A stretch of 64,000 nucleotides of DNA from Bdellovibrionales bacterium (GTDB taxonomy: Bacteria; Bdellovibrionota; Bdellovibrionia; Bdellovibrionales; UBA1609), in NCBI GenBank assembly GCA_027459485.1, contig DAIDIG010000007.1, positions 81,070-145,069 on the forward strand. The letters run 5' to 3'. A model generated the notes under the pieces. That model did not search any database, had not been told where the DNA came from, and saw only the letters and a program-made list of their open reading frames with translations. Below are positions 47,021-53,871 of this stretch, in pieces. Every line of letters begins with the position of its first letter. Position 1 is the first letter of the stretch. The position numbers and the translations under genes were made by a program.

Positions 47021-47734
47021 GTGAAACGAAAAGTTTTAAAAAGTCGCGCGGCAAAAAAAACGAATTTAGTCGTGGTTGCTCACCCGGACGATGAAACCAT
47101 TTTCTTCGGTGGATTACTAATGGCCGAACGGCGCCATGGCTGGCACGTGATTTGTGTAACCGACGGCAACGCCGACGGCCGTGGTATTGATCGACATGAA
47201 CAATTCGCACGCGCCTGCGAGGCTTTTGGCGTCAAACATTTTGATTTTTTCGATTTACCCGATCGGTACGAAATGCGCTTGAAGCAAGAAATATTGCGCG
47301 AGCGGTTAAATCGTTGGCGCGAACATTATGGCATACGCACGGTTTACACCCATGGTCCAATCGGCGAATACGGTCATCCCCACCATCAGGATGTGTCGCT
47401 GGCTGTGCATGAGGTGTTTGCCGGTACTTGCGATGTTTTTGGCGTGGCCTACAATTGTCTACCGAGTCGCATTGTGAAGCTATCGGCGCGGCAATTTGAT
47501 AAAAAGACAGACGTGCTCTCCAACATATATTTCGGTGAAACATCGCGCTTTATTCAAATATTGCCGGCCACGGATGTCGAAATGTTCGCTCAATTCGCAT
47601 TGCCCGAAGTTCGGGATTTACACAAGTACTTGTCTCAAGGCGATCCGATCCCGACGACCCATCTTAATAAGTATAAGTGGTTTTATCCGTATCTATCTGT
47701 CTTTCGCGACACAATGATCAAGCGGCCGTTTTAA
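47021..47734 (+). CDS. PIG-L (LmbE-like) family deacetylase
   Basis: VVAHPDDETIFFGG and HPHH metal-binding motifs. The start is GTG 47021, or possibly GTG 47072. Confidence 0.8.
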   Translation: MKRKVLKSRAAKKTNLVVVAHPDDETIFFGGLLMAERRHGWHVICVTDGNADGRGIDRHEQFARACEAFGVKHFDFFDLPDRYEMRLKQEILRERLNRWREHYGIRTVYTHGPIGEYGHPHHQDVSLAVHEVFAGTCDVFGVAYNCLPSRIVKLSARQFDKKTDVLSNIYFGETSRFIQILPATDVEMFAQFALPEVRDLHKYLSQGDPIPTTHLNKYKWFYPYLSVFRDTMIKRPF

Positions 47735-47833
47735 TTGTTCAGAGCGGGCCGTTTCAGCTCGATCCGTTCTGAGACAAAAAATATTTGTCATTTATATTAC
47801 TAAATATTTTTAGGTTTTATCCGATATTAGTCT

Positions 47834-48592
47834 ATGGACTTAAGACTGGTTGTGCTGGATTATCCGAAGCTCGTCCTCAATCGCGAAGTCGTTCGTAAGA
47901 TTTTCAGTGATTTAACTCTAGCGAAGCAGCAGAACTTTGAACGAGCGTCAGAGACGTACGTGAGCATGGGTCCGCTCGATATGATCAGCACCCATTGTTT
48001 AATGTACGATCAAAGTGAATTGTATACGCCAAAAATCGTCGGTGGCATTCGCGCGTGCTGGGGCAACAGGGCGCGCTATCATAGACTTCGTCTGCCCATT
48101 GAAGATTACATTACCTCCGCCCCCATCGAATACCGCAAATCCTTTGAAAGATTTCGGGCGGAGCGGCCGACACTCGTCGATGTCAATGCCGGGTTTGCCG
48201 ACCCCGATTATACGTTTGCAAAAACCGGCGTCAAAATCACCGAAATGCTATACTTTGCTCTGGTGCAATTCATAGTCAGAAAGGGTTTTGATCATTGGGT
48301 TGGCGCCACGAACGAAAAGTTCAAAGCGTCTCGATGGGCCCAGCTGACAGGTACGAGCCAAGATGGCATGATTTTTACCCATCCGCTTGTACAGGATCCG
48401 CATAAGCTTCTATTAATGGAAACGCTCAATTACGACTGGCTTTGGGATTGTTCGCAACGATACGCCGACGTCATTAGCGATCGCCTGGAGATTTTGCCCC
48501 TAGAGTATCCGAATAAGGAAACAGTAATATCTGTCGCAGAAGCCAACAGGCTCATCGATGATAAACATGGGCTTCTAAAAGCAGCTGCTTAA
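47834..48592 (+). CDS. hypothetical protein (weak GNAT-fold / LuxI-like N-acyltransferase resemblance)
   Basis: 252-aa ORF with no SD. By-eye resemblance only, in RKIFSD..., KIVGGIRA and ITEMLYFALVQFIVRKGFDHWVGATNEKFKASRW. Confidence 0.45.
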   Translation: MDLRLVVLDYPKLVLNREVVRKIFSDLTLAKQQNFERASETYVSMGPLDMISTHCLMYDQSELYTPKIVGGIRACWGNRARYHRLRLPIEDYITSAPIEYRKSFERFRAERPTLVDVNAGFADPDYTFAKTGVKITEMLYFALVQFIVRKGFDHWVGATNEKFKASRWAQLTGTSQDGMIFTHPLVQDPHKLLLMETLNYDWLWDCSQRYADVISDRLEILPLEYPNKETVISVAEANRLIDDKHGLLKAAA

Positions 48593-49453
48593 GTGGAGAT
48601 TCTCGCTGTATTCGGCTTCATACACAGATGAATCGTAACCGCTCTGTATGCATTGTAACACCTGCATTTCAAGCGGCGGTAAACCGCATAGAGTCACCAT
48701 GTCGCCGAACACTTTTGACCGGTAGTGGTAAAGTTCTTTTGAACCGTAGTGCGGGTCTTTGGTTGCTTCGATGAGTTTTTCCGTCGGTTTTGATATGATG
48801 CGAACTTTGTCAGGATAGATCTCAAATTTATACGTGAAATTTTCATCAAACGACGCAGTCGACTCGGCGATAACTTGAAACGCATCTTTATATCGATTGC
48901 ATTTGTGAAATAGGCGTCGGCCATTCGGGTCTTCTTCCGTTGTCAGAAACATGCATTTCGACAAAATTCGAATGTTGTCTACAGAATTGCCCAAGGCGAT
49001 ATATTCGCGCAAAAGATCTTCAAAGAACAAAATGCTGATTCTGTTTTGCGTACTTCGAAAATAGTCAGGGTGAACACCCAATTTAAACAAAATACCCTTT
49101 GTTAAAAAGGCCCCGTAGCGCAATTCTAAAAACTCAACGATATGCTTGGACGACATCGTATAGCTTAAAGGCGATTCGAGGTATTTTGGGTTAATGCGCT
49201 CGGGGTAATCCATGATGCCCGTGTCGACCGTAGATTTCAAAATGCGACCGTAGACGAGATCGTCATCCGATGCTCCTACGGTCCACACGAGATTTCGTAT
49301 TTTCGAAAGGGGTAGCGAGAGGCTACGATCCGACCACCAATCCAGACACTCGGCATATGAAATGTCTAGTTTCTCGGCCAATTTTCTAAGTGGCACTCCG
49401 TGCTCAAGGGTGAGACGGCGCAGGCCGAGATTGAGGTCGCGCCTTGTTTCCAT
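48575..49453 (-). CDS. HTH (XRE-like) regulator with ~210-aa unknown C-terminal domain
   Basis: N-terminus LGLRRLTLEHGVPLRKLAEKLDISYAECLDWW is an HTH pattern. AGGA RBS. Starts 8 nt after the upstream XRE gene. Confidence 0.55.
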   Translation of the reverse strand: METRRDLNLGLRRLTLEHGVPLRKLAEKLDISYAECLDWWSDRSLSLPLSKIRNLVWTVGASDDDLVYGRILKSTVDTGIMDYPERINPKYLESPLSYTMSSKHIVEFLELRYGAFLTKGILFKLGVHPDYFRSTQNRISILFFEDLLREYIALGNSVDNIRILSKCMFLTTEEDPNGRRLFHKCNRYKDAFQVIAESTASFDENFTYKFEIYPDKVRIISKPTEKLIEATKDPHYGSKELYHYRSKVFGDMVTLCGLPPLEMQVLQCIQSGYDSSVYEAEYSENLHLSSCF

Positions 49454-49461
49454 AAAATTTC

Positions 49462-49746
49462 CTAAACAGCCCGGCGATGATGCTTCACGGATTTAAAAAG
49501 TCGCTCAACATCGTCTTCGGCGCTCAACCGGTAAATCTTGCGAAAGCGATTTTGATCTAAACTCAAGATACCAATAGTTTTAATCAGCATTGGCTCGGGC
49601 ATCATGACGTGCCCTTTTTCGATTTTGCCCAAAAACTGAGCCGAGCAGCGCAAGCTCTTGGCAAGTGTCGTTTGAGTCATATTGATACTACGTCGACGCT
49701 CGAGAATGTACGAGCCAAGCATTTCTGCCAATAAAGAATGTCTCAT
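49462..49746 (-). CDS. XRE family transcriptional regulator
   Basis: 94 aa. LERRRSINMTQTTLAKSLRCSAQFLGKIEKG is a classic XRE HTH. AAGGAAGG RBS. Confidence 0.7.
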   Translation of the reverse strand: MRHSLLAEMLGSYILERRRSINMTQTTLAKSLRCSAQFLGKIEKGHVMMPEPMLIKTIGILSLDQNRFRKIYRLSAEDDVERLFKSVKHHRRAV

Positions 49747-49908
49747 GTTAATTGCCTTCCTTTGTTGTGGTTGTTGATATTTTGAAGCCTAATATACTCT
49801 ATGGTGCATGCTGACGCAATAGAACATCTTTAGGCAGCTTTTCTTTTCGAGTGTCACCGTTCAGTGAATATTAAATTGAGTAAGTTTATCTAAAGATTTG
49901 CAAAGGAA

Positions 49909-50799
49909 GTGACGAAAAAAAGCCATATGACCAAAAACTATACAGAAACCTATAAACGTAATTGGCCGATGATCCCGCACAATTTGCAAGAAAAGTTCAG
50001 CCAGCTTCGCGTTGCGGTCGCTGGATGTGGCTCAACCGGCGGCGCATTTATAGATGGACTGCTCAGGTTGGGGATTCAACATTATCACCTGACCGATACC
50101 GGCTCGTATGAACTCAACAATTTGAACCGGCAGTTCGTATTTCTCGGCGACCTCAATGTGAATAAGGCGGTTACTCACAAGAAACGGATTTTGGCCTTGA
50201 ACCCGCAGTCAAGCATTCGAGTATGGGAAGAAGGGCTGACATTGAATAATGTCTATGAGTTTGTGACAGAATGCGATTTTGTCTTTGATGCCGTTGATGT
50301 GACAACGAAGAGTGGAATGGCGATGAAATTGCGCTTACATGAAGTGCTTCATGAAAAAAATATACCGACTGGTTCGGCGCTCGACTTGGGCTTTACACAA
50401 TGGTTACAGAGTTACAATTACCATATGAATGAAGATGTGTTGAAGGGGCGTTTAGCTCGAGCGCGGGCCTGCCGGCACCCCTTGGCGGCATTAATTGAAG
50501 GGTTCGCGTCAATTGACGAATTGCCGCTCGAAATTGCCGAAGAGCTTGTTCGCCTATTTGAAAGTCCTCAAGAGAGCGCTTGTCAGCTCGCGTGTGCCTG
50601 CTTTCAATTGTCCGCAATGGTGACACCGTATATGATTAAGTTTGTGTCGACGGGGCAACTCCCTCAGCTGGTTACGATGGATGTCTTAGCGCCTTTTATA
50701 TCCAAAGCCGAAGGTCACGACCGTTTTAAAAAAACGAGGGCCGCGCATCGTCGTTTGGCGGAGCTAATCGAAAATGAGCGAAAGGTTTTGGCGGCATGA
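49909..50799 (+). CDS. ThiF/MoeB/HesA (E1-like) family adenylyltransferase
   Basis: VAVAGCGSTGGAFIDGL (GxGxxG), LTDTGSYELNNLNRQ (SNLNRQ-type motif) and DFVFDAVD. The start is GTG 49909 or ATG 49924. Confidence 0.8.
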   Translation: MTKKSHMTKNYTETYKRNWPMIPHNLQEKFSQLRVAVAGCGSTGGAFIDGLLRLGIQHYHLTDTGSYELNNLNRQFVFLGDLNVNKAVTHKKRILALNPQSSIRVWEEGLTLNNVYEFVTECDFVFDAVDVTTKSGMAMKLRLHEVLHEKNIPTGSALDLGFTQWLQSYNYHMNEDVLKGRLARARACRHPLAALIEGFASIDELPLEIAEELVRLFESPQESACQLACACFQLSAMVTPYMIKFVSTGQLPQLVTMDVLAPFISKAEGHDRFKKTRAAHRRLAELIENERKVLAA

Positions 50800-51599
50800 A
50801 CGGGGCCTATTTTTTTCTGCATTATGGCCCCGGAGGTAATTGCGATGCCGAACGCGCGTACTTCAAGAACGCGTCGGTGAGATTGCATTTTTGGGATCAA
50901 CCAGCGGCACGAACTTTTGACGAGCTGAACGAAGCCGTTACGTCGGAGTTCGCCCGGTTTGTAGCGACTCATAAGTGCCTAGGGATTGTCGGTCACAGTT
51001 TTGGTTGCGATCTCGCGATGAATTTGGCGAACCAACAAGCTAAAATTGGGTTGCGCGTGCCGGTAATTTTAGTGGCGCCAATACCCAATCTCATCTCTGC
51101 CTTTGAAAATTTGGCGCGTTGTTCTGCAAAGCAAAAAGACATGAAGGCAGATTTGCGCCAGACCATCATCGAAAAGTTGCGTGCCCTTTCAACTTCACGG
51201 GGCGAACGTCAAGTTTTATGGGACCTCGTTTTTACTATCTACGGCTATCCGAATGTAGGGCGGTTATTTTGGTATAGCGACCAGGCGTTTCTAACATTTG
51301 CCCAAAATGCGCGCGCCTATCGCGCTGTCGATTTGACAACTTGGCAAAACGTGCTTTCTGATTACATCAGTAATCATGAGCCAGCGCTTTCAAGAACAAA
51401 ATTAGCATTAACCGGCGATATGACGAAGGTATGTCTGGGCAGTGCCGACCCTTATCTCGATGACGCGATGGGCGCCTCGTTTTGGAGCCAACTGATCAAG
51501 AAGGACAACGTCTTAAATTTCACCGATGCCGCTCATTACGCGCACCTCGAAAAAATTGGCGACTTCATTAAGTTTCTAACCGCAACCGACGACAAGTAA
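50796..51599 (+). CDS. alpha/beta hydrolase
   Basis: 267 aa. HYGPGG oxyanion-like motif and nucleophile elbow G-H-S-F-G. The start overlaps the ThiF stop (ATGA). Confidence 0.7.
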   Translation: MNGAYFFLHYGPGGNCDAERAYFKNASVRLHFWDQPAARTFDELNEAVTSEFARFVATHKCLGIVGHSFGCDLAMNLANQQAKIGLRVPVILVAPIPNLISAFENLARCSAKQKDMKADLRQTIIEKLRALSTSRGERQVLWDLVFTIYGYPNVGRLFWYSDQAFLTFAQNARAYRAVDLTTWQNVLSDYISNHEPALSRTKLALTGDMTKVCLGSADPYLDDAMGASFWSQLIKKDNVLNFTDAAHYAHLEKIGDFIKFLTATDDK

Positions 51600-51666
51600 T
51601 CGCCGAAAAAATCGGCGGCGCATAGGGTGTCGCTGATTCGTGGCGCAACAAAATCGGAGGTTCTAG

Positions 51667-52065
51667 GTGAAGTCACGCACGTTCAATTATGCGGGTAAGA
51701 AGCTGAAAGCTTACTACAAAACTGCGGGCAAAGGTTACGAAGTGGGTGTTTGCCACGGCACAAAAACTCTCTTTGTGGGCAATTTCATTCACGCGAATGA
51801 AGCCACGAACTGGTACAATTTAATGGGCAAAGAAATTCACCGGTTCAGCCGCAAATTTCAAGGCTGGAATGCCGAACCCACGCGCTTTCATTGGAAGTTC
51901 GTGAGCAACACTCTCTATAAACACTATTACGATTTTCTCAACCGGTGCTTTGGCCAACATACAAAAAACTTTCATCGCGAATTCAACAAAAATGTTAAGA
52001 CTTTTCAACGAATGAAGCGCGAATGGAGCCCACGCGAGGTGGCTTACACTCGCCGCGCGGCCTAG
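51667..52065 (+). CDS. hypothetical basic, aromatic-rich protein
   Basis: 132-aa ORF with a GTG start and GGAGG 6 nt upstream. Many K/R/F/Y/W/H residues. No motif recognised. Confidence 0.5.
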   Translation: MKSRTFNYAGKKLKAYYKTAGKGYEVGVCHGTKTLFVGNFIHANEATNWYNLMGKEIHRFSRKFQGWNAEPTRFHWKFVSNTLYKHYYDFLNRCFGQHTKNFHREFNKNVKTFQRMKREWSPREVAYTRRAA

Positions 52066-52076
52066 TTCTAGAAAAT

Positions 52077-52125
52077 ACGTGCATCGGACCTCGATTGAAC
52101 CTAGTATCGACCGATGCACGTTTTT
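52077..52125 (+). terminator. intrinsic-terminator-like hairpin after the 132-aa ORF, overlapping the kefC start codon
   Basis: ACGTGCATCGG (52077-52087) pairs perfectly with CCGATGCACGT (52111-52121), with an inner TCGA/TCGA pair, followed by a T-run to 52125. Begins 12 nt after the stop at 52063-52065. Confidence 0.5.
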
Positions 52126-53871
52126 CTGATTGAAACGATTGTTATATTCGCCTCGGCCGTTGTGCTCGTGCCGATCGCGCGGCGGGCCGGTCTCGGCTCT
52201 GAATTCGGTTATCTGATCGGCGGCGTTCTTATCGGGCCGCATGTTTTTGCGCTTGTACACGATCCAAAATTAATTTTATCTGTGTCACAAGTCGGTGTCG
52301 TCCTCATGTTATTTATAATCGGGTTGAGTCTCGATTTTTCGCGACTGTGGAGACTTCGGCGCGCGGTGTTGCTTGTGGGCGGCGGTCAGGTTCTCGTATG
52401 TGGCACGTGTCTCGCTTTCATATCGGCCGCGCACGGTACAACAGCTGCGGTTTCGGTGATCGTCGGCGTGACGCTCGCTTTTTCATCAACGGCTTTCACT
52501 TTGCAACTCCTTAAGGCGTCGAACGAACTGAAAACTGAATATGGTGAAGCGGCGTTTTCGGTCCTACTATTTCAGGATCTTGTCGCGGTACCGCTTTTGG
52601 CGATTCTACCGCTTTTTTCGAAAGGGGTGGGCTCATTTAACTGGCTGTCAGGCGCTTACTCGGTCGGTCTGATTGCGGCGGTCATCGTCGGCGGGCGCTA
52701 TTTTCTGCGGCCATTTTTTCGAGTTATCGCCCGCGAGCGCTCGAAAGAACTCTTCACAATGGCGAGTCTTTTGATCATCATCGGCGTAGCCAGTGTGATG
52801 GAGTGGGGCGGCCTTTCAATGGGGCTCGGCGCATTCATGGCGGGTGTGCTGTTTGCCGACTCCGAATATCGTCACGAACTCGAGATGGATATCGAACCGT
52901 TCAAGGGCATTCTTCTCGGCTTGTTTTTTATCGCAATCGGCATGAGCGTGCAATTGCCGCTCGTATGGCAACATCCGTACATCGTGATTGGCATCACGGG
53001 CGGGGTCATCGTAACGAAATTTGTCGGTACGTATCTGGTCGGGCGATTGGCCAAGATGAGCGGGCGGTCGGCGCGCAATTTGGCGTTTGCCACGGTCGAA
53101 GGCGGGGAGTTTGCGTTTGTTATTTTCGCGCAGGCGGCGGCGCTCGCCTTGATCCCACAGCGAACAGCCGACTTTTATATTGTGTCGATTTCAGCTTCGA
53201 TGTTGCTGGCGCCGATTTTGTGGCGACTCAATCACTGGCTTTTTCGCGAGCACGCCCCGATGCGGCCGGAATTTGATAAAACACCAGATGAAGCGGCTCC
53301 GCGTGTTATTGTGGCCGGGTTCGGTCGAGTCGGGCAAATCGCCGGCCGACTCTTACGCGTAAGCAAAGTTCCTTTCACCGCGCTCGAATTGAATCCGGAC
53401 CAGGTCACTTTAATTCGCCGCTTTGGCGCCACGATTTTTTACGGCGACGCTTCGAGGCTCGATCTTCTCGAGAGCGCCGGCGCCCGAACCGCCCAGGTCT
53501 TTTTTCTAGCGGTTGGCGACTACGACGCATCCATGCGGATTGTTGACATCGTGCAGAGGAATTTTCCGCATTTGCGCATCATCGCGCGCGCCCGCAATCG
53601 CAGGCACGCACTCGATCTAATGGAGAAAAAGGTTGAACTCATTTATCGAGAGACTCTGGCCTCGAGTCTTGAAATGGCCGAAGTAATGTTTTTGCAACTC
53701 GGTTTCGACGGTGATCGCGTCGAACGCATGATGAAGGTGTTTCGCCAGCACGACGAACAAGTTTTGCGGGAACAGTTTCGCGTGCGCCGGCACGAAGATC
53801 TGTTTTTTTCGGCCGGCCGTGAAGCTCATCGTCAACTCGAGGAACTCCTCTCGACCGACAAGCAGATTTAA
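52114..53871 (+). CDS. kefC: CPA2 family cation:proton antiporter with TrkA-N domain (KefB/KefC-like)
   Basis: 585 aa. The N-terminus aligns with KefC (FASAVVLVPIARRAGLGSEFGYLIGGVLIGP). 12-13 TM helices. Rossmann motif VIVAGFGRVGQ. Confidence 0.88.
   Translation: MHVFLIETIVIFASAVVLVPIARRAGLGSEFGYLIGGVLIGPHVFALVHDPKLILSVSQVGVVLMLFIIGLSLDFSRLWRLRRAVLLVGGGQVLVCGTCLAFISAAHGTTAAVSVIVGVTLAFSSTAFTLQLLKASNELKTEYGEAAFSVLLFQDLVAVPLLAILPLFSKGVGSFNWLSGAYSVGLIAAVIVGGRYFLRPFFRVIARERSKELFTMASLLIIIGVASVMEWGGLSMGLGAFMAGVLFADSEYRHELEMDIEPFKGILLGLFFIAIGMSVQLPLVWQHPYIVIGITGGVIVTKFVGTYLVGRLAKMSGRSARNLAFATVEGGEFAFVIFAQAAALALIPQRTADFYIVSISASMLLAPILWRLNHWLFREHAPMRPEFDKTPDEAAPRVIVAGFGRVGQIAGRLLRVSKVPFTALELNPDQVTLIRRFGATIFYGDASRLDLLESAGARTAQVFFLAVGDYDASMRIVDIVQRNFPHLRIIARARNRRHALDLMEKKVELIYRETLASSLEMAEVMFLQLGFDGDRVERMMKVFRQHDEQVLREQFRVRRHEDLFFSAGREAHRQLEELLSTDKQI

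Follow-up and report, generated by a model that had tools for sequence, protein, structure and literature searches.

A ThiF-like enzyme, a predicted N-acyltransferase and their regulators in a candidate lipo-amino-acid cassette of a Bdellovibrionales bacterium

ThiF-like enzymes that act on a small molecule are known from a single chemistry, since a 2025 review names the oxazolone synthetases as the only such case (PMC12596934). In Pseudoalteromonas rubra, OxzA, an N-acyltransferase, and OxzB, a ThiF-nitroreductase protein, make tyrazolones (bioRxiv 10.1101/2020.06.11.147165), and in Mycobacterium tuberculosis TrzA and TrzS make tryptazolones by a route in which the ring has to close before desaturation can occur (PMC12856293). 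These ThiF-like oxazolone cyclases are known to be partnered by an N-acyltransferase of the LuxI/FeeM fold (PMC10404671, PMC12856293). Here we examined a ThiF-like gene and its neighbours in a 64,000-nucleotide stretch of contig DAIDIG010000007.1 from a Bdellovibrionales bacterium, referred to below as the window. In our judgement there is a somewhat better than even chance, roughly 0.55, that positions 47834-52065 constitute a single cassette for the synthesis and sensing of a small lipid-like molecule, a cyclised lipo-amino acid, rather than for the tagging of a protein.

Homologues of the window enzyme, here called ThiF, were collected, and all open reading frames (ORFs) neighbouring them in 80 genomic loci were clustered. 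Linkage counts refer throughout to the 29 non-redundant Bdellovibrionota loci that contain a ThiF homologue, and L005 and L006 are the two nearest relatives of the window cassette. Within the homologue collection the ThiF family was patchy in distribution and was found mostly in Bdellovibrionota. A first-pass annotation of the window had presented the enzyme as a stand-alone E1-like adenylyltransferase that lacks the usual E1 partners. The second half of that description holds, as no ubiquitin-like protein (Ubl), E2, JAB protease or GG-ended ORF accompanies the gene. The first half does not: ThiF is neither stand-alone nor partnerless, because a 252-residue protein, P252, is linked to it in 23 of the 29 loci and is predicted to belong to the known partner type of oxazolone cyclases.

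The ThiF-like enzyme and its relatives

The mechanical ORF call for the thiF-like gene (49909-50799, + strand) starts at a GTG and gives 296 amino acids. This GTG is not conserved in L005 or L006; the ATG at 49927, which gives 290 amino acids, is the start kept in both and the one used by database entry P0001. The protein matched Pfam family PF00899 (ThiF, E 8e-25) and is single-domain, the ThiF domain beginning at about residue 10. Intact GxGxxG and NLNRQ motifs had been recognised from the sequence at the outset, and both proved invariant in an alignment of 33 homologues, the first as GCGSTGG, together with NKA and DAVDVT; the ATP and Mg residues are invariant too. The glycine loop supplies the only conserved Cys in the same alignment, CxxC pairs and zinc motifs are absent, and domain models and the predicted structure revealed no RRE (the recognition element of ribosomally synthesised and post-translationally modified peptides, RiPPs) and no E2, rhodanese or nitroreductase domain. 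The AlphaFold2 model has a ThiF fold, with a mean predicted local distance difference test score (pLDDT) of 94.5. Since every adenylation residue is kept and a conserved Cys, CxxC pairs, RRE, E2 and rhodanese are all lacking, ThiF looks from its sequence like an adenylating cyclase and not like an E1.

The nearest structure in the PDB was 9EGB, which is AclA from Tenacibaculum discolor (Foldseek E 8e-15, template modelling (TM) scores 0.71/0.82, about 20% identity). A profile search of the PDB with the ThiF family likewise recovered 9EGB (E 1e-23) over residues 4-255, a full-length match that includes the C-terminal half with its invariant Gln. AclA is represented by three entries released in August 2025 (9EGB, 9EGC and 9EGD), the first of which is titled "in complex with substrate". 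AclA is similar in size to ThiF and carries no extra domains. Subtyping by profile search, which the first-pass annotation had suggested, thus assigned ThiF to none of the ThiS/MoaD, E1-E2-JAB or RiPP-type groups and returned AclA as the best match.

The same searches bear on a role in cofactor metabolism, in which the protein would be a divergent ThiF, MoeB or TcdA whose substrate (ThiS, MoaD or a tRNA) is encoded elsewhere and whose adjacency to a hydrolase gene is incidental. Generic similarity to the ThiF, MoeB and TcdA models is indeed detectable, and some homologues are annotated by the Joint Genome Institute (JGI) as the dehydratase of N6-threonylcarbamoyladenosine (t6A). However, window ThiF reached none of the NCBIfam equivalog cutoffs for ThiF, MoeB, TcdA, MoeZ and UbaA, scoring 60 against 275 for ThiF (TIGR02356), 29 against 377 for MoeB (TIGR02355) and 36 against 304 for TcdA (NF011696); its best NCBIfam score was 81 bits with PRK08223, for which the cutoff is 266. 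The TcdA profile match covers the N-terminal half only, the protein has neither a zinc CxxC nor a conserved Cys, and no ORF of 50-130 amino acids ending in GG occurs anywhere in the window. In addition, the neighbourhood is kept across phyla without thiamine or molybdenum cofactor genes, and the family is sporadic rather than universal. We consider a sulfur-carrier or cofactor role extremely improbable.

A second possibility is that ThiF modifies a short, unannotated precursor peptide, as MccB, PaaA, GrcB and EnfB do, with the hydrolase serving as leader peptidase. Most characterised ThiF-like enzymes of secondary metabolism act on peptides (PMC12596934), and MccB and PaaA were among the PDB matches of ThiF. 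Against this, neither an RRE nor a peptide clamp precedes the ThiF domain of the 290-residue protein, and the sole small ORF in the leader region (10 amino acids, at 49802) is conserved in neither L005 nor L006. Clustering of the 80 loci gave no conserved family of small ORFs, although its minimum length of 60 amino acids makes short precursor peptides undetectable. The recurrent neighbours are instead lipid-type enzymes, and distant ThiF homologues sit among genes for acyl-CoA dehydrogenase, SCP2, an esterase and a metallo-beta-lactamase (MBL)-fold hydrolase. Because both a clamp domain and a conserved small ORF in the leader are missing, we regard a RiPP-type role as very unlikely. It had been proposed that the substrate could be a small molecule or a peptide C-terminus processed by the hydrolase; the small molecule agrees with the evidence, and the peptide is not favoured.

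We also considered a defence system. PADLOC returned only generic E1-domain similarity to Cap2 models, confined to their E1 region, and no match for the other cassette genes, and no E2, JAB, Ubl or CD-NTase (the nucleotidyltransferase of the anti-phage system CBASS) neighboured ThiF in the 29 loci, unlike in E1-E2-JAB systems such as CBASS Cap2/Cap3, Bil and Bub. The defence reading was dropped because the PADLOC matches reflect the E1 fold only.

P252 and the conserved C-termini

The genes divergent from thiF had been described as an XRE helix-turn-helix (HTH) operon. That operon is present and encodes the proteins we call HTH94 and P292, but the 252-residue gene at 47834-48592, which lies beyond it, had been overlooked. 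P252 had no sequence match in Pfam, NCBIfam or the PDB. Its AlphaFold2 model, built on 11 homologues, reached a pLDDT of 89.5, and the top PDB matches of this model in Foldseek were EsaI, MesI, RpaI, BjaI and FeeM (E 1e-5 to 1e-4, probability 1.0). From this model we predict an N-acyltransferase fold of LuxI/FeeM type for P252. Acyl-homoserine lactone (AHL) synthases and FeeM are also the structural neighbours reported for TyzA (PMC10404671). At the sequence level, PF00765 (Autoind_synth) matched 0 of 23 members of the P252 family, and one member gave a weak Acetyltransf_5 match (E 0.024).

The P252 family is a rare one (83 representatives out of 1.84 billion) and falls into two subgroups that share about 15-20% identity with each other. 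Its association with ThiF extends beyond Bdellovibrionota, as ThiF is immediately followed by a P252 homologue in three loci of gammaproteobacteria (Photobacterium, Aeromonadaceae and Pokkaliibacter). There the order is ThiF, the P252 homologue and then an 850-residue MMPL/RND-type transporter with a sterol-sensing-like domain (L042:9590-12142, L058:7541-10084 and L066:9666-12236). Two P252 paralogues and two tandem P292 paralogues surround one ThiF gene in each of L010 and L027.

AclA has a partly similar setting. Its gene adjoins a regulator gene and a gene for a small acyltransferase-like protein, much as P292 and P252 are linked to ThiF, and in the two loci examined this protein of 201-227 amino acids gave weak matches to FeeM (1e-3) and Autoind_synth (1e-2). 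The differences are that the AclA regulator is of LuxR/GerE type rather than XRE, that no hydrolase gene is adjacent in either locus, and that the acyltransferase-like partner belongs to a different family from P252 and lacks an AA tail. In both loci (L085:309-2614 and L086:6001-8398) the aclA gene is followed by a convergent gene for a 252-residue LuxR/GerE regulator and by the gene for the 201-227-residue protein, which carries a IWHIGRFAIKKG motif. The L085 locus continues into a phosphopantetheinyl transferase (PPTase) and a large non-ribosomal peptide synthetase (NRPS), and the L086 locus into two ORFs of about 50 amino acids and a C39-peptidase ABC transporter. In Flavobacteriaceae, AclA belongs to a large family of high conservation (1334 matches at or below 1e-10). 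Alignment of the P252 family with the flavobacterial FeeM-like protein by hhalign was not significant, nor was its alignment with a 447-residue protein that partners ThiF in other phyla, and we therefore do not claim homology among these three families.

A further feature of P252 is its conserved end. Among 76 full-length members the C-terminus is AA in 42 and a pair of small residues in 64, with a consensus L-[KR]-[K/x]-A-A after a variable linker, and the AA terminus is kept in both subgroups. The window contains 56 ORFs of 100 or more amino acids; only three of them have AA at the end, and each of these three belongs to the cassette (P252, ThiF and a downstream ORF of 132 amino acids, ORF132). 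The chance that all three would fall among the five cassette ORFs of that length is 3.6e-4. HTH94 ends in ..HRRAV.

These ends raise the possibility that ThiF adenylates the ...K-K-A-A terminus of P252, and perhaps the ends of ORF132 and ThiF itself, and so primes or conjugates the synthase as Cap2 does the CD-NTase, with the hydrolase transferring or reversing the modification. Several observations speak for such a tail activation. The extreme C-terminus of P252 is strikingly conserved after a variable linker, the unrelated 447-residue partner found in Actinomycetota and Chloroflexota often ends in ...RRAA or bears AA two to three positions before its end, an X-Ala-COOH terminus is chemically equivalent to an N-acyl-alanine, and ThiF-family enzymes ancestrally act on protein C-termini. 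Type II CBASS offers a parallel, in that an E1-like domain stands beside a signal synthase with a conserved small-residue C-terminus, as ThiF stands beside P252. Nevertheless, the cassette has none of the other parts of that system, namely the E2 domain and catalytic Cys of Cap2, the JAB protease, the nucleotidyltransferase and the effector. ThiF-hydrolase pairs also occur without P252. The P252 tails of the gammaproteobacteria deviate (..NVA, ..HAI and ..PCS), the FeeM-like protein encoded next to AclA is without the tail, and the C-terminal segment of P252 is modelled as a helix (pLDDT 78-90) and not as a free tail. On balance we think tail activation unlikely. Its more specific form, in which the Lys-Lys-Ala-Ala end of P252 and possibly that of ORF132 would become a C-terminal oxazolone or conjugate and the hydrolase would act as transferase or eraser, is improbable; it would be analogous to Cap2 priming of CD-NTases, built from other parts, and if true would mean that a signal synthase is switched by activation of its protein tail.

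To account for the AA tails, we prefer a ClpXP-type degron common to these proteins over tail adenylation. This preference arises because the ThiF tail occurs only in the closest relatives of the window protein, because ThiF-hydrolase pairs are found without P252, and because basic-then-small C-termini resemble recognition motifs of ClpX, such as ssrA ..LAA and MuA ..RRKKAI. The K-K-A-A terminus is a separate lead, which may point to a signal synthase under regulated proteolysis or to one whose tail is activated.

Hydrolase, regulators and control region

The features of the cassette are collected in Table 1. The reported ATGA overlap between thiF and an alpha/beta hydrolase gene was confirmed at 50796-50799, and so was the hydrolase assignment. 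The window protein alone scored weakly (Thioesterase and Ser_hydrolase, E 1e-3), and at the level of its family Abhydrolase_1 reached 2.7e-10, with Abhydrolase_1/6 matched in 8-10 of 15 members. The family profile found a proline-iminopeptidase-related protein in the PDB at 1.8e-11, with meta-cleavage-product hydrolases also near. Ser68 in an HSFG elbow, Asp218 and His247 form an invariant triad, and an HxGPG oxyanion motif is present.

In 19 of the 29 loci a hydrolase of this type is encoded no more than 245 bp from ThiF, and an unrelated PF00756 esterase occupies its position in seven more, which brings the loci with a hydrolase at that distance to 26. An MBL-fold hydrolase adjoins ThiF in a Spirochaetota genome. 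The filling of one slot by non-homologous hydrolases (alpha/beta-fold, PF00756 and MBL) speaks for hydrolysis as one of the steps of the pathway.

Table 1. Coordinates of the cassette features within the window
Feature	Position	Strand	Basis or remark
P252, 252 aa, predicted N-acyltransferase of LuxI/FeeM fold, ends ...GLLKAAA	47834..48592	+	AlphaFold model and linkage
P292, XRE-type HTH regulator with a C-terminal domain of ~200 aa, weakly V4R-like	48575..49453	-	Family-level profiles
HTH94, small XRE-family HTH, first gene of the operon divergent from ThiF	49462..49746	-	HTH_3 E 1.5e-4, TIGR03070 1.8e-6
Candidate promoter of the ThiF operon, TTGTTG, 16 nt, TATACT	49771..49798	+	Within the divergent control region 49747-49926
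ThiF-like adenylating enzyme, predicted ATP-dependent cyclase, 290 aa	49927..50799	+	PF00899, invariant motifs, model
Alpha/beta-fold serine hydrolase, 267 aa	50796..51599	+	Translationally coupled to ThiF by ATGA
Inverted repeat CGCCGAAAAAATCGGCG between hydrolase stop codon and ORF132	51601..51617	.	Perfect 6-bp, GC-rich
ORF132, basic, aromatic-rich, lineage-restricted accessory gene, ends ...YTRRAA	51667..52065	+	GGAGG ribosome-binding site
AA tail of P252, ..LLKAAA	48580-48592		
AA tail of ThiF, ..RKVLAA	50788-50796		
AA tail of ORF132, ..YTRRAA	52054-52062		

The basic, aromatic-rich 132-residue ORF had been noted for its strong ribosome-binding site, and a GGAGG does stand 7 nt upstream of its GTG. 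ORF132 occurs at the same position in L005 (89% amino acid identity) and L006 (76%), where it is more conserved than ThiF itself (74% and 65%, respectively). It was absent from all other loci compared and had no match in Pfam, NCBIfam or PADLOC. Of the proposed trio of ThiF, hydrolase and 132-residue protein, neighbourhood comparison therefore upheld the pair and restricted the third member to the closest relatives. No T-run follows the inverted repeat CGCCGAAAAAATCGGCG on the + strand.

HTH94 matched HTH_3 just under the Pfam cutoff, and a small XRE HTH gene adjoins ThiF in 14 of the 29 loci. P292 is present in 22 of them, and in the window its gene is convergent with that of P252, with an 18-nt overlap. 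Window P292 alone had no Pfam match. Its family profile matched XRE HTH proteins in the PDB (DdrOC, 5e-9), and HTH_3/HTH_19 was found at 1e-11 to 1e-12 in 6 of 24 family members. Four members showed sub-threshold similarity to V4R, a domain predicted to bind small molecules (best 2.4e-5), always at the C-terminal end, and residues 62-290 of window P292 align with two of these. These profile matches make P292 a likely sensor of the cassette product, and P252 and P292 would therefore form a convergent synthase-receptor pair like luxI/luxR.

In the control region, the candidate promoter elements TTGTTG (49771-49776) and TATACT (49793-49798) stand where the first-pass annotation had placed them and are conserved in L005 and L006; it had given the spacer to the divergent gene as 163 nt, and with the conserved ATG at 49927 as the start the spacer is about 180 nt instead. 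GTTGTT, ATATAC and a downstream GACGCAATAGA box are all kept in the two relatives. The site fell below the threshold of a consensus scan because its -35 element fits TTGACA at just 3 of 6 positions. Rfam contained no RNA element matching 47000-53000.

A candidate pathway and its wider setting

Comparison with the oxazolone systems OxzAB, TyzABC and TrzAS indicates what is common and what is not. The acyltransferase and ThiF-like core is common to these systems and the cassette, the likeness of P252 being one of predicted structure, and all lack a Ubl, an E2 and a catalytic Cys. Moreover, mmpL9 next to the tyz genes of M. tuberculosis parallels the MMPL gene downstream of ThiF and P252 in the gammaproteobacteria. 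By contrast, each of the known systems has a flavin-dependent oxidase of the nitroreductase superfamily, which the cassette has neither fused nor adjacent; no nitroreductase or flavin-dependent oxidase was among the conserved neighbour families of ThiF. Unlike the known systems, the cassette has a hydrolase beside ThiF and dedicated XRE/V4R-like regulators, and unlike the known synthases P252 has no detectable similarity to FeeM or LuxI models and carries the conserved K-K-A-A terminus. For TrzA, the ends read from primers listed in the trz supplement are ..AGAEQ and ..TAAGQ, and TrzA therefore lacks the AA tail. The host lineage, Bdellovibrionota, differs as well. We rate the cassette as a variant with the acyltransferase and ThiF core of the oxazolone pathways, in which the oxidase is missing and a hydrolase and regulators of its own are added.

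LuxI/LuxR pairs and FeeM provide the second comparison. Their fold is the one predicted for P252, whose gene is convergent and overlapping with that of a ligand-type regulator. A small HTH gene separates the synthase module from the receptor module, an arrangement reminiscent of rsaL between lasR and lasI. P252 differs from LuxI in having no Autoind_synth sequence signature, and where the LuxR receptor combines an autoinducer-binding domain with GerE, P292 combines HTH-XRE with the V4R-like domain. The cassette further adds the ThiF and hydrolase steps to the LuxI/LuxR layout.

In the pathway that we propose for a small lipid-like product, P252 would first N-acylate an amino acid, as its fold suggests, to give an amide with a free alpha-carboxylate. 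ThiF would then adenylate this carboxylate, and an internal nucleophile would displace AMP, by analogy with family chemistry and the published logic of homologues. Attack by the amide oxygen would yield a 5(4H)-oxazolone, the outcome for TyzB, OxzB and TrzS as well as for TcdA acting on t6A; attack by a side-chain OH, SH or NH would yield a lactone or lactam. Neither a thioester nor sulfur transfer nor protein conjugation would be involved. The hydrolase may then open the activated ring (for turnover, for epimerisation or to transfer it to an acceptor) or trim the product in some other way. A ring-opening role is suggested because non-homologous hydrolases share the slot and because the rings of tryptazolones are presumably modified chemically by methanol, ethanol and acid, as described in the tryptazolone supplement. 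Finally, P292 and HTH94 would regulate the divergent promoters, with P292 sensing the product.

Several points weigh against this pathway. The flavin oxidase of every characterised oxazolone pathway is missing, and a saturated oxazolone would be labile; on the other side, TrzS cyclises before oxidation, and the saturated ring is therefore a genuine ThiF product. The NCBIfam model of the Rv1355c family (TrzS) scores 49 bits on ThiF, against a cutoff of 476 set for the two-domain protein. The assignment of P252 is that of a predicted structure with moderate TM-scores (0.45-0.62) and no match to a FeeM or LuxI sequence model. Three well-covered loci (L017, L022 and L030) have ThiF and hydrolase with no P252 within 8 kb, so that ThiF may not depend strictly on P252. 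Lastly, the V4R signal on P292 is sub-threshold and comes from a distant subgroup.

Outside the P252-linked loci, ThiF is preceded by the 447-residue protein in loci of Actinomycetota, Chloroflexota, Dormibacterota and Bacillota (L032-L084, for example L084:5522-6865 and L043:6634-7977). This protein had no match in Pfam, NCBIfam or the PDB; it has a WELARFV-type motif and often ends in ..ERRAA. In these loci a gene for a 185-residue membrane-like protein and, often, one for an af470-like monooxygenase follow ThiF, and acyl-CoA dehydrogenase and SCP2 genes often lie upstream. They look like a separate, uncharacterised ThiF cassette.

Within the window, positions 48001-52000 have a G+C content of 0.45-0.48, compared with about 0.50-0.55 in the rest. 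The cassette is flanked by a PIG-L deacetylase gene and by a KefB-like antiporter gene with pheST. A response-regulator-GGDEF-like gene lies upstream (43678-44592), and its family (cluster c5) occurs near the cassette in 16 loci, a recurrence that may merely reflect the abundance of the domain. In the Bdellovibrio bacteriovorus HD100 proteome, Bd2354, a "THIF family protein", is about 2-fold (log2) up during growth inside prey (PMC12546842).

If the proposed pathway is correct, the small-molecule chemistry of ThiF-like enzymes would be broadened by a stand-alone clade linked with acyltransferases of the LuxI/FeeM fold, with hydrolases, with lipid exporters and with ligand-type regulators, with a reach that takes in Bdellovibrionota, gammaproteobacteria and, through AclA, Flavobacteriaceae. 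Its products would be an unrecognised family of signals, ATP-cyclised lipo-amino acids, made here without the oxidase that stabilises the known oxazolones. We know of no self-produced diffusible signal established for predatory bacteria. Such a molecule would be new for these organisms, and the convergent synthase-receptor layout of the cassette would make it a candidate signal system.

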